32,369 nt of DNA from Theionarchaea archaeon (GCA_018992565.1 JACVGW010000017.1:1-32369); one strand, 5' to 3'. Numbered from the stretch's first letter, positions 5,336-31,288 are shown. Numbers and translations are program-made. The notes: generated by a model from the sequence alone, not told the origin.

Positions 5336-5339
5336 TAGT

Positions 5340-6362
5340 ATGAAAGTCGCCATGTTTTATGGGCCTGGAGATGTCAGGCTGGAAGAGAAGGACATACCTG
5401 AGATTAAGGACACTGAAGTCCTGGTAAGAATACGAGCTGCCCTAACATGTGGAACTGATGTCAAGACGTACCGCAGAGGACATAGACTACTGCCTCCCCC
5501 CTCACCCTTTGGACATGAGTATGCTGGAGATGTTGTTGCAGTAGGGAAAATGGTGGAAAAAGTCACGGAAGGAACGCGGGTAGTTGCTGCCAATTCTGCA
5601 CCCTGCGGACACTGCTTCTACTGCAAGAGGGGGAGGGAAAGTCTGTGCGAAAACCTCTTTTTTGTGTGGGGAGCTTTTTCCGAGTACATTGTGGTTCCAG
5701 AGAGAATTGTGAAGAAGAATCTCCTGACTGTTCCCGATCACGTTACCTATGAGGAAGCTGCCCTGACAGAACCTCTGGCCTGTGTCATCCATGGTGTAGA
5801 AGAATCCGCTATTTGTATGGGAGATACAGTGGTTATTAATGGTGCAGGTCCAATCGGACTGTTTTTCACCGCACTGGTAAAACAGAAAGGTGCGCGGGTA
5901 ATCCAGACCGATCTGGTGGATGAAAGGCTTTCTGTGGCAGAAACCCTGGGTGCTGATCATATCATTAATGCCCAAGAAGGAGAAGACGCCACCATTAAGA
6001 AGGTGAAAGCACTTACTGAGGGAAGAGGAGCAGATATTGCCATCGAAGCTGTTGGGTATCCAAAAATCTGGGAAACTACCATCAAGATGACCAGAAAGGG
6101 GGGGACTGCCACGCTATTCGGCGGATGTGAAAAAAACACTGCCATTACAGTGGATACATCATTGCTGCATTACAGTGAGATAACAATGAAAGGTGTTTTC
6201 CATCACACTCCCCAGTACATCAGAACAGCTCTCAACCTGATATCGTGGGGAGCCATAGACACAAAGACGTTTATCACCGAGAAAATGCCTCTGTCCCGCA
6301 TTGATGAAGCGTTGCAGAAAGTACTGGCCCAGAAAGGGGTAAAAATTGCACTGATTCCCTGA
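5340..6362 (+). CDS. Zinc-dependent medium-chain dehydrogenase (second paralog)
   Basis: TCGTDVK, GHE, CGHCFYC...C, EPLAC and GAGPIG. Confidence 0.9.
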   Translation: MKVAMFYGPGDVRLEEKDIPEIKDTEVLVRIRAALTCGTDVKTYRRGHRLLPPPSPFGHEYAGDVVAVGKMVEKVTEGTRVVAANSAPCGHCFYCKRGRESLCENLFFVWGAFSEYIVVPERIVKKNLLTVPDHVTYEEAALTEPLACVIHGVEESAICMGDTVVINGAGPIGLFFTALVKQKGARVIQTDLVDERLSVAETLGADHIINAQEGEDATIKKVKALTEGRGADIAIEAVGYPKIWETTIKMTRKGGTATLFGGCEKNTAITVDTSLLHYSEITMKGVFHHTPQYIRTALNLISWGAIDTKTFITEKMPLSRIDEALQKVLAQKGVKIALIP

Positions 6363-6664
6363 GAAATCTACAATAAGAAAATTGATTTCTCGCCTCCATG
6401 ATCAAAAGTGGCCATCTTCTTGGTCTAGCTATAATTACCACAACCGTCGCGGGCTACAGAAGTCTGATACAGAGCCATTGACGACAAACAGAAAAGAGGC
6501 AGGAACACCAATCTACAAGATATGCAACCTATCTTCTGATCTGGAAGTTGAAATGACTCAAAAAAGGAAAATGAATGTAAGATCGCGAGAAACGGCAAAA
6601 CCGCTCAATGAATCAACCAAACATTTATATTCTCTGAAGAATCTCCGCTCGAGAAGGTGCTGTC

Positions 6665-7270
6665 ATGAATATAACCTATCTGAGCCATGCCTGTTTTGAG
6701 CTCAAGAATACCAAGACTATCCTCATTGATCCATTCTTTAAAGATAATCCAAATGCTCCTTCATACTCCGGAACCCCTGACCTGGTTCTGGTAACCCATG
6801 AACATTATGATCATAGTGATGCAGAAGGGTTTGACACAGTAGTAGTATGTCCTGAACCCTGCAGAAAGAAGTTCAAGAATCCCGTGACCATGAAAATCGG
6901 GGACAGGAACCCAGTGGAAGGTATCCCTCTTGAAATGGTGGAAGCCTCCCATCATCAGTCCTCCTGTCCCACTGGATTTATTATCAAGATGGAAGGAAAC
7001 TGCATCTACCATATGGGTGACACCTACCTGGATGGAGTCAGCTCTCACGGTACTATAGATATTCTCTTCATCCCCATTGGCGGGCACTACACCATGAACA
7101 TTGAAGAAGCTCTCAAGGCCCTGGACATCGTCAAGCCAATGCTGGCAATACCAATGCACTACAATACCTTCCCCCAGATCAAAGCAGATCCCCACGCATT
7201 CAAGAAAAAGGCAGAGGAAAAAGGATTTTCAGTGAAGGTGTTCAAGATTGGCGAGAGAGCTCAGTTCTAA
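6665..7270 (+). CDS. Metallo-beta-lactamase-fold hydrolase (UPF0173/UlaG-like)
   Basis: HACF, LIDPF, THEHYDH, YHMGDT, PIGGHYTM and IPMHY. TTTATATT box about 35 bp upstream. Confidence 0.9.
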   Translation: MNITYLSHACFELKNTKTILIDPFFKDNPNAPSYSGTPDLVLVTHEHYDHSDAEGFDTVVVCPEPCRKKFKNPVTMKIGDRNPVEGIPLEMVEASHHQSSCPTGFIIKMEGNCIYHMGDTYLDGVSSHGTIDILFIPIGGHYTMNIEEALKALDIVKPMLAIPMHYNTFPQIKADPHAFKKKAEEKGFSVKVFKIGERAQF

Positions 7271-8438
7271 TACAACCCGCATACTCTATGGAGGCATAAT
7301 TGCCCTGGGGTTGGCACATTTTCTGACTCATTTCTTAGAATTTGCCCTTCCTGCGGTTTATCCGTTGATACGAGAAGAATTCTCCCTAACATATTCGGAT
7401 GTGGGAGTGATTTCAAGCAGTGTTGTCATTACCCTCTTCATCTTTCAAACACCTATAGGACACGTATCAGATAGAAAAGGAAGAAAATATATCCTGATAG
7501 CATTCCTGTCCCTGCTCATTTGTTCTACCTTTCTGACAGCCCTTTCACATTCGTATATGTATTTGTTGCTGTTCCAGGTTCTGGTAGGGGTGGGTGCCAG
7601 TGCCTTCCACTCAGCAGGGATGGCCATGGCCTCAGATATTGCCCCCCACAGGAAAATGGGAAGGTACATGGCAGTCCAGGGGTTTGGAGGGACTTTTGGA
7701 GTTGCACTAGTCCCGCTGATTGTGAGTCTCCTGGGTAGCATTCTGGGATGGAGATACGCAATCCAGGGTGTCGCACTCCTGGGAGTACCCGTTCTGCTGT
7801 GCATATTTAAATTGCTTCAGGATACAGGAAGAGCGGTAGATTCTGAAGAGAAAGATCGTGTAATTCTCTCCAAAAAAGTCATAGTGCTCGTACTGCTTGG
7901 GTTTGTCCTGCAGGGATTCGTTTTCAGAGGTATTGTCTCTTTCTTTCCCACATATCTGGTGGACGTCTACGGGAGTTCTCTCAAGCTGGCGGGTTCATTG
8001 ACATTTCTACTCTTCCTCGGAGGAGCCTTCGCAGAGCTCGTGGGGGGCGAATTGTCTGATAGAACAGAAAAGCTCAATGTAGTAATCTTCTCTTATGGTG
8101 TCAGATGCGCCCTTCTCTATCTCATAAATACACTGGGTAATCCTCACCTTCTGGTGATTCTTGTGATAGGATTCGGGTTCTTTCAGGGGATGTCCACGCC
8201 TGCTGTGGCCTCTCTCATCAGAGATATGAGCCCTTCCGGTTCTGCAGGGAAATCATATGGAGCAGTATTCAGCATTGCCACGCTGACTGGATTCTTCTCC
8301 CCCCTTATCGTGGGATATGTGGGTGATCTGTACAGTCTGCGAGTCTCATTCTATATCTTGACCCTTGCCTTGCTGTGCGCCTTTACGTTCGTGGTGATAG
8401 CCAGGTACTTCAGGTTCAAAGAGACGCACTCTGCATGA
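7248..8438 (+). CDS. MFS transporter
   Basis: About 12 hydrophobic segments, motif A GHVSDRKGRK, and its repeat GELSDRTEK. TTG start overlaps the upstream gene; the exact start is uncertain. Confidence 0.85.
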   Translation: MARELSSNTTRILYGGIIALGLAHFLTHFLEFALPAVYPLIREEFSLTYSDVGVISSSVVITLFIFQTPIGHVSDRKGRKYILIAFLSLLICSTFLTALSHSYMYLLLFQVLVGVGASAFHSAGMAMASDIAPHRKMGRYMAVQGFGGTFGVALVPLIVSLLGSILGWRYAIQGVALLGVPVLLCIFKLLQDTGRAVDSEEKDRVILSKKVIVLVLLGFVLQGFVFRGIVSFFPTYLVDVYGSSLKLAGSLTFLLFLGGAFAELVGGELSDRTEKLNVVIFSYGVRCALLYLINTLGNPHLLVILVIGFGFFQGMSTPAVASLIRDMSPSGSAGKSYGAVFSIATLTGFFSPLIVGYVGDLYSLRVSFYILTLALLCAFTFVVIARYFRFKETHSA

Positions 8439-9440
8439 CTATATGGAGCGAATATACTGAGGATCCACGTGGAGAGAACCCAAGACAAGCCGGTACCGAT
8501 CATCTGCCTTTTCAAGTCTTCCCCTGGCTTCAACAATATCGCCTTCCACGAAACTATCGCAGTAGAGTCCTTCATAAGAAATGATGTCCTCCACCGGCTG
8601 TTCCCCTTCCTGCACCTCCAGTGTTTCAACTTTGTACCCGGCAGGAAGGAACATAGATTCAGAGCTATCAGTAATCACTGCTCTGACGGTAGCTGGCCCC
8701 AACCCAGTATACTGGATATCACCGTAGGTCTCAGTAATGTCTGCATCCGTTCTGGTAGGATGGAGAGAGAAGTAGGTGCCATCGAAGAACCCATAATTCC
8801 ACTTTCTGGCTGCAAAGAGCTCTGCTTGCTTCCTGTCAATGCCAAAGATACTCATCTTATGCTGAATCCATTCTTCCATCTTCTCCCCCTGTAATCCAGT
8901 GACATGGGGTAGCTGGGGTAATATCTCCTTTATCAGGATGGCATTTCTCCTTCCGTAGACGATCAGGTCAATATCAGAAAACACTGGATTGTGTAACCCA
9001 ATGAGAATAGAGCCTGTTATACCCAGTTGATTCAATGGGATTGATGTTTCCTTCATAATCTCCTGGGCAAATACTCTCACTTTTTGCTCCAATTCGTCAT
9101 GAGGATAGTCAACAAGCTGAGCTATTCTCTCTTCTGGTACATAGTACTGGCTGATTCTATCTCTTGGGACCATAGACATTTCTATGCTGCGCACTGGGCA
9201 GTAATGTACGTAGTGGGGAAAGTCCTTCTTCAAATAGTCAATAGTCTGTGAAACAGAGAAAACATGGTAGAACGGGAGTTCTCGCCTGAAATGAGAGGCT
9301 CCTTTCTTCCACTTTCCCTGACTGGCGGGCGAATACTTCAGATAGGCTGTGATCTTATCAGGAGGATGCAGATATCCTGCCACACAGAAAAACATTCCCT
9401 CTCTGGTTTCTATGAAGTCTCTGTCCTTGGGCTTTCTCAT
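8439..9440 (-). CDS. Predicted archaeal nucleotidyltransferase (COG1665-like)
   Basis: GITGS...SDIDLIVYG Pol-beta-type NTase motif, RDFIET..G.FFCV.GYLHP N-terminus and OB-like C-terminus. Start moved to ATG 9440 (MRKPKDRD) because a TTTTAATA box lies about 22-29 bp upstream. Confidence 0.75.
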   Translation of the reverse strand: MRKPKDRDFIETREGMFFCVAGYLHPPDKITAYLKYSPASQGKWKKGASHFRRELPFYHVFSVSQTIDYLKKDFPHYVHYCPVRSIEMSMVPRDRISQYYVPEERIAQLVDYPHDELEQKVRVFAQEIMKETSIPLNQLGITGSILIGLHNPVFSDIDLIVYGRRNAILIKEILPQLPHVTGLQGEKMEEWIQHKMSIFGIDRKQAELFAARKWNYGFFDGTYFSLHPTRTDADITETYGDIQYTGLGPATVRAVITDSSESMFLPAGYKVETLEVQEGEQPVEDIISYEGLYCDSFVEGDIVEARGRLEKADDRYRLVLGSLHVDPQYIRSI

Positions 9441-9545
9441 GAAAGAACCTTGACATGCAGTTATTAAAAGGTGAGCATTGAAATCCACGCTCCAGAAGAA
9501 AAGTGGTGGTATTGATCCACCACATGAAAAGCGAACCCATCTTCT

Positions 9546-11562: not shown

Positions 11563-12057
11563 ATGTACTCCCACATCCGGAAATTCGTTGGGTACTTCTT
11601 CCATATGTCACTCAGGATCAAAATGAAAGCACTTAAGGTGATGGGCGTCAAAATCGGAAGGAACACAGTCGTTTACACTTCAATGCTCAATTTTGATACT
11701 TTCTTCCCAAATATCATCGAAATTGGATCAAACTGCGTTGTTTCCAAACATACGATTCTCATTACCCATGACTACTCCAGGAACTTCCCCACTGAAGGCC
11801 GGGCTTCCATGACTAAAGGGAGGATAGTGATAGGGGACAATACCTTCATCGGAATCGGGTGTATTATCCTCCCTGGTGTGAGTATTGGTAGCAATGTGAT
11901 TGTGGGTGCAGGGTCGGTAGTACGGGATTCTATTCCAGACAGTGTCGTAGCAGCGGGAAATCCCGCGCGAGTCATTAGTTCTCTGGAAAGATACATGAGC
12001 AAGGAACGTGCCAGAGAGGAAGCCTATGATACCACGTATGTTGTCAGGGCCATGTGA
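11563..12057 (+). CDS. Hexapeptide-repeat (LbH) acyltransferase
   Basis: IEIGSNCVV, ILITHD, IVIGDNTFIG.GCIILPGVSIG.NVIVGAGSVV and VAAGNPARVI. ATG 11563 lies about 22 bp after TTTATAA. Confidence 0.85.
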   Translation: MYSHIRKFVGYFFHMSLRIKMKALKVMGVKIGRNTVVYTSMLNFDTFFPNIIEIGSNCVVSKHTILITHDYSRNFPTEGRASMTKGRIVIGDNTFIGIGCIILPGVSIGSNVIVGAGSVVRDSIPDSVVAAGNPARVISSLERYMSKERAREEAYDTTYVVRAM

Positions 12058-13228
12058 TACGAAATTCTGCACTCGATGCGGATGCTGTATCAGTATATGC
12101 CCACAAGAATGTATCACGATAACCACACATGCAGAAATTGATGACTCATGTACGCAGTGCGGACTGTGCCGTGAAGTATGTCCAGGAGAGGGGACTGATC
12201 TGAAGGAAGAGGGAAGAAAGCTGTTTGAGGGCTCATGCTATAACCAGTATGTGGGCTGGATCAACCACGCATATACTGGTTACTCTTTTTCTGATGCAGT
12301 TCGGAAACGAGGCACCTCAGGAGGAGTGGTGACCTCACTGTTGATCTGCCTTCTGGAAAAGGGAATGATAGATGGTGCTCTGGTGGTGGGCTTTGACCCT
12401 GAAAAGCCCTGGAAGACTGTCTACCAGGTAGCCACCTGTGCTGAGGATATTCTAGAGAGTGCTCAGACCAAATATCAGGTGACGCCTTTAACCCAGCGTA
12501 TTTTCAGTTTGCCTTTGGAGAGAATTGCCGTGGTGGGCCTTCCCTGTGTCATTCAGGGGTTGAGAAAGGTTCAGGCTCTCAAGCAAGGGGAGAAGATAAG
12601 ACTTCTTATTGGGTTATTCTGCTGGGTAAACATGGAACGGGAAGCCACAGAATTCCTGCTGGATATGCTCAAGGTTTCTCCTGAAGAGGTAGCGTCCCTT
12701 GAATACAGGGGAGGGGATTATCTAGGAGGGTTCAGGGTCACCAAAAAAGACGGGGAGGTCATCACCCTGGACAAGGAGTGCTACAATGTTCTGCCCTTCC
12801 TGTTTGCCCCTGAGAGATGCGTTTGCTGCAGTGATTTCACCAATGAATTGGCAGACATTTCAATGGGAGATGCCAAATTTATGCATTCTCAGAAGGGACA
12901 TACCTTTGTCATAACCCGATCCCAGGAGGGAGAAACTATGTTGAAGGCATGTCTTGACCACGTATCGATAGATGAACATGATATTGAGGATATTATCTGG
13001 TCTGAGAGCTCTTCTCTTTTCTTCAAGAAGAGAGGACATAGGAGGTTGTTGAGAGAACCCTCAGTACACTCGGAAGAAGAGATAGACATTCCCGTTAAGA
13101 ATCGGCTCTTTGAATTCGGATTTACTCTTATTCACAAGAACAGGAACTTCTTTAGATCACTGTTCAAAGCAATGCCTGTAGAGTTGTTTAAACTGGTATC
13201 AAGAGTCATAACTAGAGAGAGAAGCTGA
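12026..13228 (+). CDS. FrhB-family protein with N-terminal 2x[4Fe-4S] ferredoxin domain
   Basis: CTRCGCCISICP, CTQCGLCREVCP, TSGGVVT, TKY, VGLPC, IGLFC and CVCCSDFTNELADISMGD. ATG 12026 follows GAGAGGA. Confidence 0.85.
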   Translation: MIPRMLSGPCDTKFCTRCGCCISICPQECITITTHAEIDDSCTQCGLCREVCPGEGTDLKEEGRKLFEGSCYNQYVGWINHAYTGYSFSDAVRKRGTSGGVVTSLLICLLEKGMIDGALVVGFDPEKPWKTVYQVATCAEDILESAQTKYQVTPLTQRIFSLPLERIAVVGLPCVIQGLRKVQALKQGEKIRLLIGLFCWVNMEREATEFLLDMLKVSPEEVASLEYRGGDYLGGFRVTKKDGEVITLDKECYNVLPFLFAPERCVCCSDFTNELADISMGDAKFMHSQKGHTFVITRSQEGETMLKACLDHVSIDEHDIEDIIWSESSSLFFKKRGHRRLLREPSVHSEEEIDIPVKNRLFEFGFTLIHKNRNFFRSLFKAMPVELFKLVSRVITRERS

Positions 13229-15126: not shown

Positions 15127-15582
15127 TCACCACTTTTCAATGTGAGTAAGAATCACCTTGTGCAACTGATCCCTGTTCTCCCGGGTGACCTCAAAGACCT
15201 CTGCATCACCATAGGTAAAAGCATCCACAAGGTCACTTCTCACGATGAGGATGGCTGGCTCTCTGATATAGTGAAAAACATCAAGGACTCGTTCCACTTC
15301 CAGATACCCAATTTCATCATATACCAGAATATCTCCATCCCTTCCAAGACTGTCAATGATGAACTGCAGAGATTCTACACGAAAGAAAAATCTCCTGAAT
15401 TTCAATCCAGGCCCTGTTTCTGAGCAGAGTATCCTCTTTTCTCCTGTCTTCACGTCCTCAACATAGTACCCATCCTCAAACCGATCACTTATCACACCGT
15501 AGAAGTCCCTTCTGGATTCATTCACAATTCTCCGCAGCACTGTTGTTTTCCCAATTCCCCTCTCCCCTGTGATCACAATCAT
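15127..15582 (-). CDS. P-loop NTPase (NTPase_1/THEP1- or DUF2478-like)
   Basis: ITGERGIGKTT (Walker A) and LVYDEIGYLE (Walker B). ATG 15582 overlaps the EcfT stop (ATGA). Confidence 0.8.
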   Translation of the reverse strand: MIVITGERGIGKTTVLRRIVNESRRDFYGVISDRFEDGYYVEDVKTGEKRILCSETGPGLKFRRFFFRVESLQFIIDSLGRDGDILVYDEIGYLEVERVLDVFHYIREPAILIVRSDLVDAFTYGDAEVFEVTRENRDQLHKVILTHIEKW

Positions 15583-16250
15583 AGACTCCACCACCCCGCC
15601 CCAGCCAACGCAGCTGCCATGAAAAGAATCCAGGCATAATCAAACAGAGAGAATACCGATTGCTTCCTGAATGTCCTTTTCCTGTATATGCCGAAACATC
15701 GCCCCTCCATTGATAAAGTCAAAGCATCGGCTCTCTCCAGAGCCGAATATATCCACGGGAAGAAGGTATATCTCACACTGTTGAGAAGAGAAGAAACCCC
15801 TTCCAGGTTTATCCCCCTGGCCATCTGTGCCTTCTTAATCATCATAGATTCAGTACTGAAGAGTGGAATCAACCTGAAGGTGAGCACCATGGTCATGCCA
15901 TACCGGTAAGGCAGTCCACAATTCATGAGAGCGTGGGCAAATTCATTGGGGTCCTCTCGAGAAAATAACATGCCGGAAAACACAATTCCCAGGAATCTCA
16001 ACACAATACGCAGGGCATATTCCACTTTGTAAGAGAGATCTCCCTCAATAAAGAACGCGTTGATCCCGAAAATAATCACTGCAAATATCATGACAAATCG
16101 ACTCACCCGAAACCGAGTGACATACATCACAAAAGGGATGACAAAAAGCCCTGCCAGCACAACCAGGTCATCAACTATGAAAAGAATGACACAGTACACT
16201 GCCACCGTGAGGAATTTGGTGAGAGAATTCAGCCTAAAGCTTGATCTCAT
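15579..16250 (-). CDS. ecfT: ECF transporter transmembrane component T
   Basis: Hydrophobic N-terminal half, RLIPLF, AQMARG and SMEGRCF (the two conserved Arg motifs). True start is probably ATG 16250. Confidence 0.88.
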   Translation of the reverse strand: MRSSFRLNSLTKFLTVAVYCVILFIVDDLVVLAGLFVIPFVMYVTRFRVSRFVMIFAVIIFGINAFFIEGDLSYKVEYALRIVLRFLGIVFSGMLFSREDPNEFAHALMNCGLPYRYGMTMVLTFRLIPLFSTESMMIKKAQMARGINLEGVSSLLNSVRYTFFPWIYSALERADALTLSMEGRCFGIYRKRTFRKQSVFSLFDYAWILFMAAALAGAGWWSL

Positions 16251-17559
16251 GCAATTTCCCCCCTCGCAATTCAAATACACGGGTGCAAAATGCCTTGGCA
16301 ATAAAGGGATCATGCAACACCATAACACATGTCTTTCCTTTCAATAGATCCATGATCTTCTGGACATTCTCGTAGTCCTGACCAATGAAGGGTTCATCCA
16401 GGAGAATTACCGCTGGGTCATAGGAGAGAACTGAAACAATGTTGAGTCTCCTCTTCTCACCATAGCTCAATCTGAAGGGATTCCTCTCCTGGTATTCCTG
16501 CAGTCCTGCATCTGCCAGAAGTGGGGTGATATCACGTTCTACAGAAAAATTGGTTGCTGCGAAACATGCCTCTTTGCGCACAGTATTCTCAAATATCTGG
16601 TGATTCGGATTCTGGAATACGATCCCAACGTCTTTCGCGATTTCTGCAGTCTTTTTATCTCGTATGCTCTTGTTATTAATGAGGATGTCTCCTTCATAGT
16701 TGAGAAAATTCATGATACACATGAGGAGGGTAGTCTTCCCTGAGCCATTGGCACCCATGATCCCCACCACCTCATTTTCTCTCACTGTCAGGTTGACACC
16801 ATCCAGAATCAGGTCATCATATGAAAAAGTCACATTCTTGAGCTCCAGGACTGGTTCACCCACCTCCCTCATGTATCCGGTATAGTGAATATCTACAGGG
16901 GTCTCGATGCGGACTAAAGTCCCGTCCTTCATTTCATAGAAGTGGTCCGCATACTTGTAGATGTGTTTCCACTTGTGTTCAATGACAAGTGCCGAAATGT
17001 TTGCTTTTCCCTTGATTTTAGTAATGACTCGCATAATTTCCTTGGTTGTCTCCACATCCAGGTTTGAGGTGGGCTCATCAAAGATGATAACCTCCGGTTT
17101 CATGGCCAGAATGGAAGCAATGGCTACCTTCTGTTTCTCACCACCTGACAGAGAGCGGGTCTCTCTTTCTTTCAGGTGAACTCCTCCCACAATGCTCAGG
17201 GCCCAGTCTATTCTCTGCTGGACTTCTTCAGGTGAAAAACAGAGGTTTTCCAGCCCAAAGGCAATCTCATCCTCAACGTTCAGAGTACATATCTGTGCCT
17301 CGGGGTCCTGCTGCACCATCCCAATACTCTGGGCCAGTTCAAAGAGGTCCACCTCGTCAATGTTACTGCTAGAGAAGAGAATTTCACCGGTATGGAATCC
17401 AGTATCTCTCAGGAACCCCGCGATACTGAGAGCCAGCGTTGACTTGCCACTTCCACTTTTTCCTGTAATGACAATGAGCTCTCGGTCTACAGTGAGGTTG
17501 ATATTCCTCAGAATCCACCGATCGCCGTACTTGAAGCTGTAATCTCTTATTTCTATCAT
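16234..17559 (-). CDS. ECF transporter fused double ATPase (EcfA-EcfA')
   Basis: Two ABC domains: GKSGSGKS / QDPEAQ / LSGGEKQK / FDEPT, then GANGSGKT / QNPNHQ / LSYGEKRR / LDEPF. Confidence 0.92.
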   Translation of the reverse strand: MIEIRDYSFKYGDRWILRNINLTVDRELIVITGKSGSGKSTLALSIAGFLRDTGFHTGEILFSSSNIDEVDLFELAQSIGMVQQDPEAQICTLNVEDEIAFGLENLCFSPEEVQQRIDWALSIVGGVHLKERETRSLSGGEKQKVAIASILAMKPEVIIFDEPTSNLDVETTKEIMRVITKIKGKANISALVIEHKWKHIYKYADHFYEMKDGTLVRIETPVDIHYTGYMREVGEPVLELKNVTFSYDDLILDGVNLTVRENEVVGIMGANGSGKTTLLMCIMNFLNYEGDILINNKSIRDKKTAEIAKDVGIVFQNPNHQIFENTVRKEACFAATNFSVERDITPLLADAGLQEYQERNPFRLSYGEKRRLNIVSVLSYDPAVILLDEPFIGQDYENVQKIMDLLKGKTCVMVLHDPFIAKAFCTRVFELRGGKLHEIKL

Positions 17560-18509
17560 AATATCTCTATCTTTATCACGTCCTGCACCCAGTAACTCCC
17601 TTCATACCCCTTGGCTATCAGCCGTCTCTCTCTGGTAAGGATAAGCTCTTCAATCCCATCCAGTGGAAAATCCACCGCATATCCATCTTCTGCAATGACT
17701 CTCACTGTTCTTCCTCGAGGATTCGCCCTTTCCACAACAAGGGACAAGGGAATACCCGTATACTGGGCTTCGGGTTCATACTTGTACTGTCCCACCATCT
17801 CTGCTTCCACAGTGGTCTCATACTGGGAAAAATCATCATATATAAGGAAGTATGCCTGTCCTACGTCGCCTGTCACCTCAATTTTCTCCGAGGTCTTATA
17901 CACGAAAGAATAGTAGTACACGCCGCCCACCATGAAAGCTGCACATATCACCAGTGTCAGGGCTTTCCTCACGTTGTATTCCTGCTCTCTCCCTTCCACT
18001 ACATTCAGTACATTGTAGGCAAAAACACCGGCAAAAGCAACTCCTGAAACAAATGAAATGAGAGCAATCAGAGTGAAAAAGTGAATCGCATTGTAGGGAG
18101 CGAAGAACAGTTGGAAGATGAATACATTGGCTGCTGTTGCTATGCCTCCTGCAATGGAGTACGTATACACATTCTTCTTCCTCAAGACAAGGAACATCAC
18201 ATCAGCAAGAACTCCCTGGATACCGCTCAGCAGAATGACAAAAATACCAAGCTTGCCGCCGGTGAACAGCTCTACCAGCCCTTTGAGAATCCCCACCATA
18301 GTGCAGGTTCCTTCTTTTTTCACCAACCCAAAAGCCAGGATAACCCAGAATATGTGTAACCCTGCCAGAAATTGTCCTGCGCCAAAGGGGACGCCCAAGA
18401 ACCTGTTGACCAGGTTACCCAGGTATCCAATATATGTGGAACTCACTCCACCCAAAGCCGATAGTATAGCAATTTTAACCAGGTCTTTCGTTTGGAAGTA
18501 GTATTTCAT
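17556..18509 (-). CDS. ECF S-component (YkoE-like) fused to a C-terminal sulfite-oxidase-like (Oxidored_molyb) domain
   Basis: N-terminal ~175 aa: TKDLVKIAILSALGG followed by about 6 TM segments. An extra TM follows, then IEVTGDV...YTGIPLS.VV...VRVIAEDGY...RLIA....GSYWVQDVIKIE. Confidence 0.75.
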   Translation of the reverse strand: MKYYFQTKDLVKIAILSALGGVSSTYIGYLGNLVNRFLGVPFGAGQFLAGLHIFWVILAFGLVKKEGTCTMVGILKGLVELFTGGKLGIFVILLSGIQGVLADVMFLVLRKKNVYTYSIAGGIATAANVFIFQLFFAPYNAIHFFTLIALISFVSGVAFAGVFAYNVLNVVEGREQEYNVRKALTLVICAAFMVGGVYYYSFVYKTSEKIEVTGDVGQAYFLIYDDFSQYETTVEAEMVGQYKYEPEAQYTGIPLSLVVERANPRGRTVRVIAEDGYAVDFPLDGIEELILTRERRLIAKGYEGSYWVQDVIKIEIL

Positions 18510-19279
18510 AGTGGAATCACCTCGTATGTGACCTCATCCCCCACACGAACAACAATATAATGATGGAACCCCTGCCTCGTCAATGATGATCCAGCTCCCC
18601 CTGATACGATAAGGGTTGTGCCATTAATGTCTTCTTCGTACAGGTGGTGTATGTGGGAGCAGAAAACATAGTCCACATGGTATTTCTGTACAATCTCAAG
18701 GAATTCCTCTGGATGAATCATGCAGTATGTCCCTTGAGGATCCAGAGGTGGCACGTGCATGAACACAAAGGTGTGTTCAACTCCTCTCTTGAGTTGGTTC
18801 TCCAGAAATTCAAGCTGAGATTCGTTGAGAACCTTTCTCGAATTGTCCAGAATCACAAAGAGAGCATTCCTGTAGGTGATAGCATACACTCTGTCTCCCA
18901 GATGCTGGGAGTAGTAGGGGGAGTCATCATGGTTCCCACATACGTACAGGAGGGGGGGTTTCAAAACGGATACTGTCTCCAGAAATGCTTCAAAGTCGTG
19001 TGGTGTCCCTTCAAAGACGAAATCGCCTCCTCCCACTACGAACAAAGGGTCCAGCTCATTAATCTGTCCAAGCATTGTGATGAAAACCTCTGGGTGCTGC
19101 GAACCGTCAGTAGGCCTGCAATCCCCAAAGAAGACGAATGTGAATGGATAGGTATCACCAAACAATTCTCTTCCTTTGTAAACTGGATACTGGTCTCGTG
19201 TCCTCTGAACCTGATACCCTGTCATGAGGATCAGTGCTGCCACACCTACAGCAGCTACCAGCACGTACCATCTCTTCAT
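18506..19279 (-). CDS. Membrane-anchored or exported calcineurin-like metallophosphoesterase
   Basis: N-terminal hydrophobic anchor (MKRWYVLVAAVGVAALILM), FGDCR, GGDFV, GNHD, MHVP and SHIH. ATG 19279 lies 25 bp from a TTTATAA box; ATG 19291 is an alternative start. Confidence 0.85.
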   Translation of the reverse strand: MKRWYVLVAAVGVAALILMTGYQVQRTRDQYPVYKGRELFGDTYPFTFVFFGDCRPTDGSQHPEVFITMLGQINELDPLFVVGGGDFVFEGTPHDFEAFLETVSVLKPPLLYVCGNHDDSPYYSQHLGDRVYAITYRNALFVILDNSRKVLNESQLEFLENQLKRGVEHTFVFMHVPPLDPQGTYCMIHPEEFLEIVQKYHVDYVFCSHIHHLYEEDINGTTLIVSGGAGSSLTRQGFHHYIVVRVGDEVTYEVIPL

Positions 19280-19303
19280 CGATATGCTCATGTAAGCATG
19301 ACG
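19280..19303. promoter_or_regulatory. Candidate ModE-like operator, box 1
   Basis: CGATATG-ctcatgtaag-CATGACG, a 24-bp imperfect palindrome filling the gap between the minus-strand TATA (19304-19310) and ATG 19279. Confidence 0.55.
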
Positions 19304-19381: not shown

Positions 19382-20179
19382 ATGAAAAACCTTGGAATAA
19401 TGTTCATCCTGTTGGTCCTTGTACTGGGATGTATTGGACAGGAAGAAGTGGTGACAGAACCCGAGCCAGAGTACACATTGGACGTGACAGGACTGGCTCA
19501 AGGGACGATTACTGTTGCCGACCTGAGGGAAACTCCTTCAGAGTTCACCGCTATCCTGGTGAAATCTACAGGTACTGAAATCGAAAATACATGGAAAGGG
19601 AGGCTTCTCACTGAATTACTGGCACAATACAATGTGAATCCCGAATACATTTCATTTGTGGCTGAAGATGGGTACATGATCACACTCCAAATGGAGGACC
19701 TGAAGAATGCATATCTGTGCTACGAGATGGACGGGAAGCAGCTCGCTCTGGAAGACGGAGGGCCTGTAAGACTTGTCATCACCGACCAACCGGGGAAGCT
19801 GTGGATGTCGTATCTCAAAGAGATCAAGCTGATAGGAAAGGAAAATGCATTGATTATCCATGGCAAGACCAAAGTAGTCCTCGCTCTGACAAAAGAGGAT
19901 TTTGCGCGTTTTGACAAGAAAACGATGGAAGCTGAATTCAAGGGAGAAATGAAAACCTATGAAGGCATTTCCTTAACGGTACTACTGAATCAGGCGCGAT
20001 ATGAAGATGATGCAACTAGCATCAAATTCGTAGCTAGCGATGGATACACCATTGAACTGGATTTCGCTGAGGTATACGGTAACGAGGACATTCTGGTGAC
20101 TGAAGACTTCACTCTCGTTATGCCTGGATATGAATCGAAGTACTGGATGAAAGGCCTGGCGGAGATAGAGGTATTATGA
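19382..20179 (+). CDS. Lipoprotein with two sulfite-oxidase-like (Oxidored_molyb) domains
   Basis: Lipobox LVLGC. Domain 1: LDVTG...WKG.LL..LL...FVAEDGY...DGGPVRLV..DQPGKLWMSYL.EI. Domain 2: YEGISL..LL...FVASDGY...LVMPG..SKYWMKGL.EIE. Confidence 0.75.
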   Translation: MKNLGIMFILLVLVLGCIGQEEVVTEPEPEYTLDVTGLAQGTITVADLRETPSEFTAILVKSTGTEIENTWKGRLLTELLAQYNVNPEYISFVAEDGYMITLQMEDLKNAYLCYEMDGKQLALEDGGPVRLVITDQPGKLWMSYLKEIKLIGKENALIIHGKTKVVLALTKEDFARFDKKTMEAEFKGEMKTYEGISLTVLLNQARYEDDATSIKFVASDGYTIELDFAEVYGNEDILVTEDFTLVMPGYESKYWMKGLAEIEVL

Positions 20180-20895
20180 AGAGACTCTTATTATTTCTTT
20201 TTTTGATTTTAGGTCTTGGATGTATCCATCAAGTGCCCTGGACCTTTCATGTCATAGACGATGGTGTGACTGAATATGCGCTGGATTCTATCGCATCAAA
20301 AGACATCTCAACGATTGAGGAGACACTTGTTGAGAAAGAGATTAAGAAAGTCACGTGGGAAGGTGTTCTGGCCAGGGAATTCGGCGAGGGTGACACTATC
20401 AACTTTATTTCGCAGGACGGATATCTAGTCAGTATCCCATATAACGTGGATGTGATACTGGCATTCAGGAAAGAAGGAAATCCCATTGGGGAAGAAGATG
20501 GTGGACCCTTGAAGATTATCGTGGATCCCACCTATGGCTGCAAATGCAACTGGCTCAAGTATCTGAGAATTGTGGAATTCGTAGACAAAGAAGACTCTTT
20601 TTCAGTCTACGGGGATGTGTTCAACTTGCTGACCTTTTCCCCGCGGGACTTAAACTTGCACTACGGGCTGGAAGATGTCCTGGCTAATACCTCCAATGAG
20701 GTCCCTCTGGTATTTGTGCTGGACAAGGCCATAACCAAGGAAAACGCTACCACAATAACGTTTGTCACAGAAGATGGACGTTATACATACACGCTGCAAG
20801 AAATAAGAGACATGAATCCCACTCTGATTTATGACAATGGATTCTGTATCATAGAACTGGGAATAGTGAACTTGAAGGGAATCAAGATCGAATAA
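20176..20895 (+). CDS. Lipoprotein with sulfite-oxidase-like domains (second domain degenerate)
   Basis: Lipobox LGLGC, then WEGV...FISQDGY...DGGPLKIIV...YGCKCNWLKYL. Second repeat VYGDV...VPL..VL...FVTEDG. ATGA overlap with the upstream gene. Confidence 0.7.
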   Translation: MKRLLLFLFLILGLGCIHQVPWTFHVIDDGVTEYALDSIASKDISTIEETLVEKEIKKVTWEGVLAREFGEGDTINFISQDGYLVSIPYNVDVILAFRKEGNPIGEEDGGPLKIIVDPTYGCKCNWLKYLRIVEFVDKEDSFSVYGDVFNLLTFSPRDLNLHYGLEDVLANTSNEVPLVFVLDKAITKENATTITFVTEDGRYTYTLQEIRDMNPTLIYDNGFCIIELGIVNLKGIKIE

Positions 20896-21222
20896 AAACT
20901 GAGAATATGTTCGTAGTAATCTGAAAATGCTGTCATATTGTGATGGATTCACTGCTGTTTAGTTTATCATGGGACTGTAAGGCTGTCTTTACTTTTATGG
21001 CACGTAATTTGCTTGTTCTCTGTTGAAAGAAGAGATTTGCACGCTCTTATGGAGATTATCAGAGAATAACTCTGTACAGACCGTTTTCAGCAGATGGCTT
21101 TCTCTCCCACAAGAGAATGGTGTGTGAGGGTTGGTCCTGTCCAGAACCCGTGAGTAGTGCATCAGGTTGATCCAGCATCTGAACCTTTTTATATGTTCAC
21201 GAGGAAGCTCCATTGTGATTTC

Positions 21223-21942
21223 ATGATACTGAAAGAAGTATCCTGGTTGGACATAAAACCTGCAATAACAGAAGACGCTGTAGCAGTTATTCCTGTTGGA
21301 TCTACAGAACAGCACGGACCACAAAACCCTTTGGGGACAGATCATATGATTGCAGAACGCCTGGCTGCAGGAGTAAGAGAAGAAGCCATCATCACTCCCA
21401 CCGTTCCTGTGGGATACTCAGAACACCACAGACAGTTCCCTGGTACCTTGTGGGTTTCTCCCCATGTGCTTCAAGAGTATGTTTTAGGAATCTGCCAATC
21501 GCTGCAATACCACGGAATAAGGAAAATACTCATTGTCAATGGGCATGGCGGAAATACATTTCCCTTGCTGAGAGCAGCCATGAAGATGAGAGAACAGGGA
21601 GTCTTTGTAGGGCTACATGAGTGGTGGAAAGCCTGCAAAGAAGAAGATGCCCATGCGGGTTCTGGTGAAACATCATTAAACTTGTTTCTCTATGAACATC
21701 TGGTGCACATGGACAGGGCAAAAGACAATACAGCTGGATGGTCGCCTCCTCTCCATGGAACCATAATCTGGTATGATACTATTGATTTTTCTGATGATGG
21801 AACAGTGGGGAGTCCCACCAGAGCCACCAGAGGGAAGGGAGAGGTGCTGTACAGGGACGCTGTTAATCAGCTTAAGCAGACCATAGCCTACATGAAGGAA
21901 ACACCCCTGAAAGATTTGCTGTGCAAGGAGAGAGTGATGTGA
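21223..21942 (+). CDS. Creatininase-family amidohydrolase
   Basis: IPVGSTEQHGP..PLGTD, GYSEHH..FPGT, NGHGGN and HAG..ETS. ATG 21223 lies about 28 bp after TTTTATAT. Confidence 0.9.
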   Translation: MILKEVSWLDIKPAITEDAVAVIPVGSTEQHGPQNPLGTDHMIAERLAAGVREEAIITPTVPVGYSEHHRQFPGTLWVSPHVLQEYVLGICQSLQYHGIRKILIVNGHGGNTFPLLRAAMKMREQGVFVGLHEWWKACKEEDAHAGSGETSLNLFLYEHLVHMDRAKDNTAGWSPPLHGTIIWYDTIDFSDDGTVGSPTRATRGKGEVLYRDAVNQLKQTIAYMKETPLKDLLCKERVM

Positions 21943-22673
21943 CTGTGAGAATACTGGCTTTATCTGACTTTCATGGAGCTACTCATGTCCTGGATATGCT
22001 GATGGCCAGAATTGATCTGATTTCTCCTGATGTCATCGCATTCTCAGGGGACATTGTCAAAGGGCATAGCCGCGGAGACGAATGGCTCCAGGCACATGAC
22101 GAAGGAAGAACTCCTGAAGTGACAGAGGACATAAAAAACGAAGAGAAGGAAGATCTTCAATTTTATCAAGCTTTTTTCTCATTCCTGGACACGGTCAAGA
22201 TACCTTCTTTTGTGGTTCCGGGGAATATGGATGCTCCAGAAAGCCGCTTTCTCCAGGCGTGTCCTCAATCCAGACTGGTGCACCAAACCATGGTGAGAAC
22301 TCCTGTCAGCATTGCTGGCTTTGGAGGTGAGCTCACAGAAGAGCAGGAAGAAACAACATTTGTGCTCCAGTATTCCAGGGAGAGAGCCATAGAAGCCATG
22401 AAGCCATTTTCTGGCAAAGAAATCAGTATTCTCATTACCCATTCTCCACCCATATCTTCTCTCAGCAATGAAGATGGCCAGGAGAAAGGATCTGACGTTG
22501 TGAATTACCTGGTGGATCTTCTCCGCCCAGAGTATTTGGTCTGTGGGCATGCTCACAGCGCTCAGAGTTCAGAATGGATTAAGACAACGCTTGCAGTGAA
22601 TCCGGGGGCTGCGAAGTATGGTAATTATGCTGTAATAGAGGGGGATTCAGTGGAGTTCGGAAGGCTGGTTTAA
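21939..22673 (+). CDS. Icc-like metallophosphoesterase
   Basis: LSDFHG, SGDIV, VPGNMD, THSPP, CGHAH and VNPG. GTG 21939 overlaps the upstream TGA. Confidence 0.85.
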   Translation: MTVRILALSDFHGATHVLDMLMARIDLISPDVIAFSGDIVKGHSRGDEWLQAHDEGRTPEVTEDIKNEEKEDLQFYQAFFSFLDTVKIPSFVVPGNMDAPESRFLQACPQSRLVHQTMVRTPVSIAGFGGELTEEQEETTFVLQYSRERAIEAMKPFSGKEISILITHSPPISSLSNEDGQEKGSDVVNYLVDLLRPEYLVCGHAHSAQSSEWIKTTLAVNPGAAKYGNYAVIEGDSVEFGRLV

Positions 22674-23599
22674 GTTCTCCTTTGAGGGGCATAGGATCGC
22701 ATAGTGCATTCTCTGCAGGTACAGAGCCGAGGGCGACCTGCTCTTATCTTGTAACACCCTGCTTGTGATGCCAGTTCTTTGAAATAGGTGATACCCTCCT
22801 TCTCACCAGGGATATCTGGCATTCCTGCCCAGTCCACCTTACGAAGTCCACAGTCTCGTGCAGCGTCTACTACTGATTCCATCTCTTGTGTGCTACTTCC
22901 TCGTGCTCTCTCCAGTACAAAATTAGGCCTGAACGCCAGAAAAGACACAGGGGCATCTTCAGAGAGGTTTGCCAGGAATCGAGCAATGTTGACAGCTTCC
23001 CCCATCAGTCCCGGCATCACCAACACTCGAAACTCATACACCTTTTCCATAGCATGTTCTACAAGGTATTCCACATTCCGCAGGACAGGACCCACCCGCG
23101 CACCTGTCAAGAGGATGTGTACCTCATCGGTAAAGGCCTTGATGTCGAACGTGATCGAGTCTGAAAACGTGAGTATTCTCTCCAGCGAGGCTTCTGTCAT
23201 GAATCCATTTGTATCGAAGTTCACCTTTGCGTTGACAGATAGAGCCGCTGCTTCTACCCAGGGTAGAGAACACGTGGGCTCACCTCCCGTGAAAAACAGC
23301 CGGTCTGCCCCAATCTGCCTTCCCTCTATGGAATTCAAGGCAGCTACTCCCATTTCTGCCCACTCTTCAGGAGGTATGTACTTCCCTCTTTCCTGCAACA
23401 TGGAGAGAGGATAGTTCTGGCAGCCCAGACAGATGAAATTGCATCCTTCCATGAAGGCGTCGAAACTCGCTGGAGGCGCTGGATGCAACATGGAGACCAC
23501 TACTCGGGGTATTCCGATGCCACATATTCCAGTCTCACCAGATATCCTGTTGACCTTGCATCGCCATTCACATAACTGGCAGGACTCCAGTTCTTTCAT
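22670..23599 (-). CDS. Radical SAM protein (PflX/activating-enzyme-like)
   Basis: CNFICLGCQN (CxxxCxxC), FTGGEP, DTNG and FDIKA. Extra N-terminal CQLCEWRC..CG and C-terminal CTCREC motifs. Confidence 0.88.
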   Translation of the reverse strand: MKELESCQLCEWRCKVNRISGETGICGIGIPRVVVSMLHPAPPASFDAFMEGCNFICLGCQNYPLSMLQERGKYIPPEEWAEMGVAALNSIEGRQIGADRLFFTGGEPTCSLPWVEAAALSVNAKVNFDTNGFMTEASLERILTFSDSITFDIKAFTDEVHILLTGARVGPVLRNVEYLVEHAMEKVYEFRVLVMPGLMGEAVNIARFLANLSEDAPVSFLAFRPNFVLERARGSSTQEMESVVDAARDCGLRKVDWAGMPDIPGEKEGITYFKELASQAGCYKIRAGRPRLCTCRECTMRSYAPQRRT

Positions 23600-27315: not shown

Positions 27316-27753
27316 TCATCCCTTTATTCTCTCATTTCTGGTATTGTTCCAGCGATACAACCCAGCATACACATACAATGATGCGACAAATCCTGCAGCA
27401 AGCCCAGTGGCCAATCGCAGGATGTTGTTGCTCTCCCTGAAAAGGAGCTGAGTCCCTCCATCCAGCACCAGTGGAAAAACGGCTGCCATCAGCACCCACC
27501 TCGGAGGAGAGGTCCCGGAAGCCACCGAACTTCCTATGAGAGCACCCAGATATATGCCTGTACACCGAGCGCACACTGGAAGCTGATGACCTGCAATATG
27601 GAAGGACCTTTGAGGGAGTTGATGGCAAACTGGGGAGAAAAATAGATACATGAATGCAGAGAATGCAGGGAACCTATCTCTCATTAGTGGTGTCAACACG
27701 ATAACCAGGCACCAAACACCAACTGCTGCCAGCACCTTACTTCTTAACCTCAT
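27316..27753 (-). CDS. DUF2085-family membrane protein
   Basis: VCHQLPQRSF...G.QLPVCARCTGIYLG, LDGGTQL and SNNILRLATG. Start at ATG 27753. Confidence 0.88.
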   Translation of the reverse strand: MRLRSKVLAAVGVWCLVIVLTPLMRDRFPAFSAFMYLFFSPVCHQLPQRSFHIAGHQLPVCARCTGIYLGALIGSSVASGTSPPRWVLMAAVFPLVLDGGTQLLFRESNNILRLATGLAAGFVASLYVYAGLYRWNNTRNERIKG

Positions 27754-28321
27754 TTGAGATGATTCCTCCCAATGCACCAAACAGCGCCAGCAGGACGAAC
27801 ATGACCAGAATAACAACAACGGCTAGTGCCCCTGCAAATTCCTCAAGAGTGATTCCTGCCTCTGTCAGAGCCTCTGTAAGCTCGGGTGTGTACACAGCTT
27901 CGTCTAAAAAGGACCTGTAATCCCCTACCATAAGAAACTGGACTACTACTATGATGAAAGCGGCCACACACCCAGAAATTCCTCCAGTCAAGGCTGCTTT
28001 TCCTGTAGAGATCTTCCCCTCGATAGCGTTCCAGCGTTTCACCAAGTATACTGCAAGAGCTCCGCCCACGACTATCCACAAACAGAGAACGCAATTCAGT
28101 ACTGAGATTACGGGAGCCACAGATAGAATGCCTCCAACAACGCCACCAATCAATGCTGGCATCAATATCTTCTGCATCTCTATGGAAGACTCGCCCGTCC
28201 CAAGGCAATCCTTGCAGTAGGTGCGGCCTTCCTTCATGACCACACAATCTGAACACAGGTTCTTCCCACAGGTGAAGCATTGAGCTACAGAAATCCTATC
28301 AGGATGGTAATAGCAGTTCAT
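27737..28321 (-). CDS. B-box-type zinc finger plus multi-pass membrane protein
   Basis: CYYHP....AQCFTCGKNLCSDC......YCKDC followed by about 4 Gly-rich TM segments. ATG 28321 lies about 22 bp after a TTTATA box. Confidence 0.75.
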   Translation of the reverse strand: MNCYYHPDRISVAQCFTCGKNLCSDCVVMKEGRTYCKDCLGTGESSIEMQKILMPALIGGVVGGILSVAPVISVLNCVLCLWIVVGGALAVYLVKRWNAIEGKISTGKAALTGGISGCVAAFIIVVVQFLMVGDYRSFLDEAVYTPELTEALTEAGITLEEFAGALAVVVILVMFVLLALFGALGGIISNEVKK

Positions 28322-28419
28322 AGTACGTATGAGCAGGTAGCCTATAAATTTCTTTCCCTGCTTCATTCCCTTAGTCACCTGAAGGAAACCTTTTTTATGA
28401 GTCAGCTCCACCCTTCTGC

Positions 28420-31146: not shown

Positions 31147-31170
31147 TTTCCTTCCTTTTTTCTTTTACTT
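31147..31170 (+). terminator. Pyrimidine/oligo-T terminator
   Basis: tttccttccttttttcttttactt immediately after TAG. Confidence 0.55.
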
Positions 31171-31288
31171 GTGTCTTCCAAGGTCTCCATTGGTCTCCCA
31201 ATTCAGAATTCGGACTGATTCAATCAGGTGTCTTTCAATTCTCCCGTAATGAAAAGAAGCTCTCGGAATCGGAGGGCTTGACGCGCGA

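Follow-up and report, generated by a model that had tools for sequence, protein, structure and literature searches.

A theionarchaeal ECF S component fused to a predicted extracytoplasmic, cysteine-less sulfite-oxidase-fold domain: a putative importer of the tungsten/molybdenum cofactor

The S-component fusion and its operon

The 32,369-nucleotide stretch of DNA analysed here, from a Theionarchaea archaeon (GCA_018992565.1 JACVGW010000017.1:1-32369; the whole stretch is hereafter called the window), contains a minus-strand operon of five genes with overlapping stops and starts. They encode, in order, a metallophosphoesterase, an energy-coupling factor (ECF) S component that carries an additional C-terminal domain (hereafter S-fusion), the fused double ATPase EcfAA', the coupling component EcfT and a small P-loop NTPase (Table 1). 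The S-fusion gene overlaps both neighbours: its start lies across the stop of the metallophosphoesterase gene, and its stop lies across the start of the EcfAA' gene. An earlier note on this DNA had described the second gene as an S component fused to an extracytoplasmic domain resembling sulfite oxidase, a description that was borne out by family match, fold and topology.

The N-terminal part of S-fusion matched PF09819 over residues 8-125 (69.5 bits versus a cut-off of 25.2), and Bacillus subtilis YkoE (5EDL) could be aligned with residues 6-165 (phmmer, E 1.3e-6). By fold, residues 4-178 were superposed on 5EDL with a Z score of 22.3 and a root-mean-square deviation (rmsd) of 3.0 Å over 173 residues (VIA-align), and the S components ThiT, RibU, BioY, FolT and PanT gave Z scores of 10.8-13.0 with the same core. 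S-fusion is an S component of the PF09819 family and belongs to a group I ECF system.

An AlphaFold2 model of S-fusion, based on an alignment of 33 homologues (predicted local distance difference test score, 88.3), contained helices at residues 7-38, 50-63, 68-82, 90-109, 114-136, 142-171 and 180-203, followed by a beta-rich domain at residues 210-316. Hydropathy placed the seventh transmembrane segment at residues 183-205, and none of the 33 homologues in the alignment lacked it. Lysine or arginine residues numbered 1, 2, 3 and 1 in the loops on the same side as the N-terminus, versus 0, 1 and 0 on the other side. Because of these charges and of the presence of seven helices, the N-terminus is placed inside and the C-terminal domain outside, and the last 113 residues are predicted to be extracytoplasmic. 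The earlier note had announced an extra transmembrane helix and a domain of about 110 residues, which correspond to helix 180-203 and the 113-residue domain of the model, and the outside location that it assumed agreed with the helix count, the positive-inside rule and the presence of paralogous domains on lipoproteins. All five sequence motifs that it quoted were located: VTGDV (residues 211-215), YTGIPL (250-255), AEDGY (273-277), RL (296-297) and YWVQDVIKIEIL (306-317).

The C-terminal domain of the window protein did not reach the PF00174 threshold (13.7 bits, E 0.049, cut-off 24); its direct Pfam assignment was therefore discarded and replaced by family-level and structural evidence. At the family level, 24 of the 33 orthologous domains matched PF00174 at E <= 0.01, so that the window's domain is considered homologous to this family, though divergent. 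Moreover, its alignment with domain 2 of lipoprotein 1, the product of a nearby gene, showed 29% identity (E 2e-13), and a profile of the domain matched the PDB sequences of SoxC (E 1.8e-7) and SorA (E 4e-6). Structural comparison of residues 205-317 with enzymes of the sulfite oxidase (SUOX) fold gave Z scores of 13.6 for SoxC, 13.2 for SorA and 11.8-12.1 for chicken sulfite oxidase (VIA-align), and a Foldseek comparison agreed with a SUOX/PruR fold. On the basis of the lipoprotein identity, the orthologue matches, the SoxC profile match and the structure, the domain is related to the SUOX fold, as the earlier note had held.

No cysteine was invariant or near-invariant among the 33 aligned domains, and that of the window protein is entirely devoid of cysteine; ligation of molybdenum in the manner of SUOX enzymes is thus impossible. 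The invariant residues were G214, E237, G240, G252, D275, Y277 and W307. These data bear on the idea that the outside domain is a catalytic molybdenum enzyme of the MsrP/YedY type, anchored in the membrane by an S-component look-alike, which we consider extremely improbable. Its fold is indeed that of the SUOX enzymes, YedY included (Z 9.7-9.9, VIA-align), and true fusions of SUOX and membrane domains exist, such as an MsrPQ-like open reading frame (ORF) with a Cys motif at locus L083. However, the 33 domains share no conserved cysteine, and the gene is translationally coupled to those of EcfAA' and EcfT. In addition, the domain follows seven transmembrane helices and there is no twin-arginine translocation (Tat) signal, from which we infer that a cofactor-loaded domain could not be exported.

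The fold is also that of the PruR proteins, which are exported, combine the SUOX fold with the lack of the cysteine, and bind pterins in a site corresponding to that of the molybdenum cofactor (Moco) (PMC11194511). PruR 7kos was superposed on the S-fusion domain with a Z score of 13.4 and an rmsd of 2.0 Å over 108 residues, and the PruR-neopterin complex 7rkb with a Z score of 12.8 (VIA-align); in the model, the domain is thus as close to the PruR pterin binders as to sulfite dehydrogenases. PruR was absent among the PDB profile matches of the domain, so that the sequence searches gave no link between the two. The pterin sandwich of Agrobacterium tumefaciens PruR is formed by Y104 and W160 together with N102, and there is a PW motif (PMC11194511), and the invariant D275-G-Y277 and W307 of the S-fusion domain occur in the same order as N102-x-Y104 and W160, a similarity of order alone and not of superposed positions. 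This is a lead suggesting that D275, Y277 and W307 may be equivalent to the sandwich residues. By analogy, PruR would be the best functional counterpart of the domain.

Concerning the other products of the operon, the solved sequence nearest to the metallophosphoesterase was the phosphohydrolase 2dxl/2zo9/3d03 (E 1.4e-6). Its lone hydrophobic segment, at N-terminal residues 3-29, indicates that the enzyme is membrane-anchored and probably extracytoplasmic. EcfAA' scored 319 bits against TIGR04520 (ECF_ATPase_1), with a cut-off of 315. Judging from a 223-residue orthologue at locus L001, the true start of EcfT is probably Met27, at about position 16250.

Two divergent genes encode lipoproteins. 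Lipoprotein 1 consists of two tandem SUOX-fold domains without the cysteine ligand, which matched PF00174 with 56.7 bits (first domain) and 19.8 bits (second domain). Lipoprotein 2 matched PF00174 at residues 58-140 (31.8 bits), its one recognizable SUOX-fold domain, and its residues 146-239 had no family match in Pfam. Prediction of a complex between S-fusion and mature lipoprotein 1 (residues 18-265) twice gave a score of 0.00 and, run without controls, counts neither for nor against an interaction. Homologues of lipoprotein 1 that are 44-45% identical and labelled 'reductase 1' were observed in Thermococcus (P0318 and P0319), and none of the five sampled Thermococcaceae genomes contained a copy. 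No gene for a GGDEF or EAL protein was present among the annotated ORFs of the window, where consensus promoter and terminator sites occurred at chance level only.

Table 1. Coordinates of the S-fusion gene and its parts, of the adjacent genes in the window and of kinase-fold genes in other loci
Feature	Position	Strand	Description
S-fusion ORF	17556..18509	-	317 aa, ATG start
S-component core, YkoE type, six transmembrane helices	17976..18509	-	residues 1-178; PF09819, 5EDL match
Seventh transmembrane helix	17901..17972	-	residues 180-203; AlphaFold2 helix, hydropathy, loop charges
Predicted extracytoplasmic, Cys-less SUOX/PruR-fold domain	17559..17897	-	residues 205-317 (113 aa)
Metallophosphoesterase, first operon gene	18506..19291	-	261 aa; PF00149, 44.2 bits
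EcfAA', fused double ATPase	16234..17559	-	441 aa; two ABC_tran domains
EcfT coupling component	15579..16328	-	PF02361 CbiQ, 63.9 bits
Small P-loop NTPase, last operon gene	15127..15594	-	155 aa; PF03266 NTPase_1, 57.4 bits
Lipoprotein 1, divergent	19382..20179	+	265 aa; lipobox LVLGC, residues 13-17
Lipoprotein 2	20176..20895	+	239 aa; lipobox LGLGC
RIO1/APH-like genes	L011:11149-11859, L021:11176-11976, L077:11454-12146, L056:11832-12692		adjoin EcfT

Conservation of the fusion, its gene set and the associated riboswitches

A search of 5.8 billion clustered proteins yielded 511 homologues of S-fusion. Among the 120 listed, 117 covered at least 98% of the query, with lengths of 317-368 aa, and both PF09819 and PF00174 had been precomputed in 20. 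These 120 included proteins from Theionarchaea/Methanofastidiosia, Thermoplasmata, Methanomassiliicoccales, Syntrophomonadales and other Bacillota. Moreover, an exhaustive HMMER search detected 231 relatives among 50%-identity representatives, and a relative was encoded by 278 genomic stretches from species-representative genomes. The possibility of an assembly artefact, raised with the original claim, was dispelled by the persistence of the fusion in hundreds of homologues from two domains of life: the fusion is real.

Some relatives departed from this architecture. Proteins of about 450-460 aa (P0138, P0140, P0142, P0145, P0148, P0152, P0154, P0161 and P0163) were matched to the query only from residue 2 to about residue 290, and may bear a longer or a second outside domain. 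Others consisted only of helix seven and the outside domain (P0177, P0199, P0201, P0209 and P0220; 160-213 aa) or of an S component without the outside domain (P0150, P0151 and P0153; about 190 aa), and are possibly split forms or contig fragments.

The gene set was conserved together with the fusion. A PF00174-like exported protein, a metallophosphoesterase, S-fusion, EcfAA' and EcfT were all encoded at seven archaeal loci (L001, L003, L011, L020, L021, L022 and L050) and at four bacterial ones (L028, L056, L065 and L036). At all of these loci, the phosphoesterase gene was adjacent to the S gene. Orthologues of the phosphoesterase carried lipobox signal peptides at L021, L022, L056 and L028. 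At L021 and L022, both from Thermoplasmata, the phosphoesterase was itself fused to a PF00174-like domain, and the enzyme is therefore tied to whatever this fold binds. A P-loop NTPase following EcfT was found again at L003. At four other loci, EcfT was adjoined by a gene of the RIO1/APH-like kinase fold (230-286 aa; Table 1), which hints at a cytoplasmic phosphorylation step.

An Rfam scan of 16 bacterial S-fusion loci, within 8 kb, revealed 12 Moco RNAs (RF01055) at eight of them. At six loci (L028, L056, L065, L055, L069 and L077), the RNA was located directly 5' of the operon containing the S gene, from which it was separated by 88 bases at L077 and 61 bases at L069. No riboswitch for thiamine pyrophosphate (TPP), tetrahydrofolate or another coenzyme was detected at the 16 loci, Moco RNAs being the only ones. 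Because Moco RNAs were found there instead of a TPP riboswitch, S-fusion was not classified as a functional orthologue of YkoE.

Inspection of the alignments showed that the P3 stem was missing from all 12 Moco RNAs. According to Regulski et al. 2008 (PMC2408646), P3-less Moco RNAs are associated with the metabolism of the tungsten cofactor (Tuco); the same authors listed, as an unexplained exception, two P3-less RNAs preceding 'sulphite oxidase' genes in Syntrophomonas wolfei. This exception matches the type of gene observed at S-fusion loci.

P3-less RNAs were also observed before other genes near these operons. At L036 (Anoxynatronum; L036:13227-14010), one lies just downstream of the operon and directly before a second, unrelated ECF S gene (PF12822, 178 aa). 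At L069 (L069:11817-16523), another precedes the gene of a protein of 1413 aa that contains PKD domains as well as a PF00174 domain; this giant protein may serve the system in capture at the cell surface.

The loci L055, L069 and L077 (Pelotomaculum/Desulfotomaculaceae) were arranged differently: the PF00174 protein and the phosphoesterase were absent, and the ECF genes were preceded, at positions of about 2300-7900, by TrmO_N-like, ModABC-like and DUF364 'heavy-metal chelation' genes and by two TupA-like genes (PBP_like_2). This arrangement brings in the explanation that the system is an ECF importer of tungstate or molybdate, with SUOX-fold domains recruited as receptors of oxyanions and with a riboswitch that, as for modABC, would repress the uptake of metal once cofactor is abundant. 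Moco riboswitches classically govern molybdate/tungstate transporters (PMC2408646). Some ECF systems transport metal ions (Ni, Co). We nevertheless judge this explanation improbable, mainly on the grounds that neither a pterin nor an insertase would be available for an imported oxyanion in 25 of 29 archaeal carriers of the fusion or in the genome of the window. Moreover, the S component belongs with those for vitamins (YkoE type) and not with the CbiM/NikM metal type, the known ligands of the outside fold are pterins (PMC11194511), and oxyanion uptake offers no role for a conserved surface phosphoesterase, which is at times fused to that fold. For bacteria, the TupA-like and ModABC-like neighbours of the Pelotomaculum-type loci keep the explanation alive.

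Tungstoenzymes and cofactor biosynthesis in carrier genomes

The genome to which the window belongs (2.8 Mb, 88.4% complete, 1.6% contaminated) encoded 10 AOR-family proteins and at least two PF00384 enzymes. No match was found in it for MoaA_C, MoaC, MoaE, MoeA_N or MoCF_biosynth (MogA/MoaB/MoeA), for which the same searches gave matches in 11-13 of 14 control genomes. A MobA-like gene was retained, with a score of 99.5 bits, below the strict cut-off. A TupA-like candidate on C70, with a strong PBP_like_2 match, was rejected, as it proved to be the PstS protein of a pstSCAB-phoU operon; the same gene accounted for the sole PF13531 match of the genome. A second PBP_like_2 match, on C119, was PstS-like and below the cut-off, and no tungstate transporter is claimed.

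We then considered 50 other genomes encoding S-fusion (29 archaea and 21 bacteria), in all of which AOR was present. MoaC and MoeA_N were both absent from 25 of the 29 archaeal carriers, and the remaining four had both. Oxyanion uptake in these carriers was judged by ModA/WtpA, TupA being assessed in the genome of the window only; none of the 25 archaeal carriers devoid of MoaC and MoeA had a ModA/WtpA-type protein (E <= 1e-20). Among the bacterial carriers, MoaC and MoeA were both absent from five of 21.

To place these counts in a wider sample, 133 genomes of the class around the window were compared, 13 of which encoded S-fusion. MoaC was absent from 11 of these 13 carriers versus 9 of the 120 non-carriers. 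Six of the 11 MoaC-less carriers were 91-99% complete, whereas eight of the nine MoaC-less non-carriers were below 90%. In the Thermococcaceae, S-fusion was found in none of 97 genomes and MoaC in 91. Within the window's family, the single genome of a sister genus had MoaC and lacked S-fusion. In one genus with 17 genomes, two carriers (94% and 99% complete) had no MoaC and one carrier had it, and MoaC was present in 12 of the 14 non-carriers.

A similar pattern was detected in 151 genomes of Thermoplasmata (including the unpublished G275, counted only as having MoaC and lacking AOR and the fusion). S-fusion was encoded by 20 of the 38 genomes with AOR and without MoaC, by 4 of the 47 with both, and by none of the 66 without AOR. 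Fisher tests, in which kinship was ignored, gave p values of 8e-6 and 3e-9. Overall, the association between the fusion and the loss of MoaC was seen repeatedly: one class shows it in at least three lineages, and it is also present in a second class and among bacteria.

The Thermoplasmata genomes with AOR and with neither MoaC nor the fusion were G190, G197, G201, G207, G208, G213, G232, G251, G267, G274, G281, G288, G294, G301, G305, G307, G314 and G321. A relaxed search gave only weak matches, to the C-terminal domain, in five of these 18, and the one ORF inspected was rejected as an MsrPQ-like fusion. This Thermoplasmata ORF of 344 aa (L083:1012-2046, minus strand) combines an N-terminal SUOX domain bearing the Cys motif with a C-terminal, multi-helix membrane part; it resembles a fusion of the MsrP-MsrQ type and has no relation to the ECF system.

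The distribution of AOR and MoaC bears on the nature of the cargo. One candidate is another phosphorylated vitamin or a small pterin other than Moco, such as thiamine or hydroxymethylpyrimidine (HMP), as for YkoE, a monapterin- or neopterin-like pterin, as for PruR, or a precursor of folate or methanopterin; the link with molybdenum and tungsten would then be indirect. A surface phosphoesterase combined with a cytoplasmic kinase is the usual salvage logic for many vitamins. The closest characterized S component, YkoE, binds thiamine (PMC5037267), homologues of S-fusion are labelled as thiamin/HMP permease subunits by the Joint Genome Institute, and the PruR-type cleft accepts small pterins and is too short for Moco (PMC11194511). 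On the other hand, the sole coenzyme-sensing RNA at the 16 bacterial loci is the Moco RNA, and carriage of the fusion follows AOR (50 of 50 carriers, and none of the AOR-less Thermoplasmata) and the loss of the Moco pathway, neither of which would be predicted for an importer of thiamine or folate. Such a cargo appears unlikely to us.

A metal-free precursor, that is, cyclic pyranopterin monophosphate (cPMP) or molybdopterin (MPT), would be another possible cargo, in which case dinucleotides or the cyclic phosphate would be the target of the phosphoesterase. Of the pathway intermediates, cPMP is the most stable; the families nearest to the phosphoesterase are phosphodiesterases, and most bacterial carriers retain MoeA and MoaC, so that a precursor would be usable in them. 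The genome of the window, however, lacks MoaE, MoeA and MogA/MoaB, and MoeA is missing from 25 of the 29 archaeal carriers; this explanation is weakened because no known enzymes would allow cPMP or metal-free MPT to mature there, and we hold it to be hardly likely. As these archaea lack MoeA and MogA/MoaB in addition to the early enzymes, their cargo should arrive with the metal already in place.

Elsewhere in the window, the lipoprotein genes are followed by a creatininase-family gene overlapping a Metallophos_3 phosphoesterase gene (21157-22673, plus strand) and by a convergent radical-SAM gene (22670-23599, minus strand). Four other ORFs had no Pfam match at E <= 1e-6, namely 28420-30336 (plus strand, 638 aa), 8439-9488 (minus strand, 349 aa), 27737-28477 (minus strand, 246 aa) and 30543-31190 (minus strand, 215 aa). 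Two genes resembling FrhB/FdhB, of the F420 hydrogenase/dehydrogenase beta-subunit family, were also observed (128-901 and 12008-13228, both on the plus strand), a pair within 32 kb in a genome that is related to non-canonical methanogens.

Proposed function and comparison with known systems

Taken together, these results lead us to favour, with moderate confidence, the reading that S-fusion is the S subunit of a group I ECF importer that salvages the pyranopterin cofactor of tungsten or molybdenum (Tuco/Moco), whether entire or trimmed. In the mechanism that we propose, the SUOX-fold domains of the lipoproteins and of the S subunit would bind pterin cofactor released by other cells. Metallophosphoesterases commonly cleave nucleotide-diphosphate bonds, and the one encoded here would trim the cofactor, for instance through cleavage of dinucleotide forms, which would leave the mononucleotide-free pterin, or through removal of phosphate. 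The ligand would then pass from the tethered domain to the pocket of the S component, the S subunit would topple in the EcfT scaffold, and ATP hydrolysis by EcfAA' would release the cargo inside the cell. There, the NTPase or kinase-like neighbours may re-activate the cofactor or deliver it to AOR-type enzymes; participation of the P-loop NTPase in the cytoplasmic handling of imported cofactor is a possibility. The hybrid ECF/binding-protein mechanism that the earlier note had suggested for S-fusion is, in this context, a reasonable proposal. As to the broader view, namely a dedicated prokaryotic ECF importer for the intact cofactor, with a tethered pterin-binding domain, 'antenna' lipoproteins and a surface phosphoesterase, whose carriers are Moco/Tuco auxotrophs fed by their community, we regard the case as evenly balanced.

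Several points weigh against cofactor salvage. We infer the ligand from genomic context, and its binding and transport stand here as proposals; moreover, free Moco is notoriously labile. The Rfam scan of the window found no RNA family, the archaeal window itself having no riboswitch, and the riboswitch evidence is therefore borrowed from bacterial orthologues that are 40-45% identical. Even there, eight of the 16 loci had no Moco RNA within 8 kb, and the TupA-like and ModABC-like genes ahead of the Pelotomaculum-type operons also fit oxyanion uptake. MoaC was present in 15 and MoeA in 16 of the 21 bacterial carriers, and both in four of the 29 archaeal ones, so the system is not confined to auxotrophs. 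The p values given above overstate the association because related genomes are not independent; most of the genomes are metagenome-assembled, and completeness was unreported for the locus-derived genomes and for the Thermoplasmata sample. In that sample, 18 of the 38 genomes with AOR and without MoaC contained neither S-fusion nor a YkoE-like part, even at E 1e-3; these genomes are either incomplete or use other routes. Finally, the cleft of PruR is shortened and fits small pterins, not Moco (PMC11194511).

If cofactor salvage is confirmed, it would provide a testable answer to two puzzles. One is that of the 'orphan molybdoprotein' organisms, of which Peng et al. reported several hundred, with molybdenum or tungsten enzymes and an incomplete Moco pathway, mostly without known molybdenum transporters, and left unexplained (PMC6147048). 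The other is the riboswitch exception of Syntrophomonas wolfei. Whole lineages of uncultured, anaerobic archaea (Theionarchaea, relatives of Methanofastidiosa, many Thermoplasmata and some Asgard archaea) and some Bacillota would then run up to ten AOR-type tungstoenzymes after the loss of cofactor biosynthesis, metal insertion and oxyanion uptake, and the cofactor would join the 'public goods' that are traded in anoxic communities. A cofactor-rich extract would thus be a candidate supplement for the cultivation of these archaea. Among known ECF transporters, the system would also be the first to make use of extracytoplasmic binding modules, and it potentially represents a known kind of transporter with a new biological capability.

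Moco is commonly described as a cofactor that cells are unable to import. According to a review, Moco cannot be taken up in most organisms (PMC9026282). Our literature search, from which subscription journals were mostly excluded, retrieved no published description of a prokaryotic Moco/Tuco importer, of an extracytoplasmic binding domain on an ECF S component or of a link between ECF systems and Moco or Tuco; PMC3766115 and PMC11477304 contributed nothing about the present system. Several known systems nevertheless share parts of the one described here. YkoEDC, the group I ECF thiamine transporter of B. subtilis (PMC5037267), has in common with it the PF09819 family, the fold and an operon that also encodes a T component and a dedicated double ATPase of the fused kind, and both YkoEDC and the bacterial S-fusion operons are controlled by riboswitches. 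In contrast, YkoE has six helices and no outside domain, accessory lipoproteins or phosphoesterase, and the context of its operon is thiamine instead of a Moco RNA.

With the PruR proteins (7kos, 7kou, 7rkb, 7kom and 7kp2), the outside domain shares the Cys-less, exported SUOX fold (Z 10.7-13.4, rmsd 2.0-2.9 Å over 107-108 residues) and, by analogy, the character of a binding module rather than an enzyme. PruR, however, is a soluble signalling protein of Proteobacteria whose target is the DcpA cyclase/phosphodiesterase and whose ligands are small pterins (PMC11194511), whereas the S-fusion domain is tethered to a transporter, has no DcpA-like gene nearby and is expected to bind the larger pyranopterin cofactor. 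The SUOX enzymes SorA (2blf), SoxC (2xts) and YedY/MsrP (1xdq) share with it the fold of the Moco domain and the conserved C-terminal 'G..WV' strand; the S-fusion domain differs from them by the absence of the molybdenum-ligand cysteine, of dimerisation or haem domains and of Tat export, and by a shortened loop region.

Substrate-binding domains fused to transporters are known from importers of the GlnPQ/OpuA type, which are type I ATP-binding cassette (ABC) importers and a precedent for the tethering of a binding domain to a transporter. The dietary uptake of Moco by nematodes is a precedent, in a eukaryote, for the acquisition of intact cofactor from other organisms. Finally, ModABC, WtpABC and TupABC belong to the same bacterial riboswitch regulon, serve the same goal of supplying molybdenum and tungsten enzymes, and are neighbours of the fusion at L055, L069 and L077. 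They are, however, type I ABC importers with soluble binding proteins, which transport the bare oxyanion and need the full Moco pathway, whereas the S-fusion system is an ECF system and occurs where this pathway is absent.

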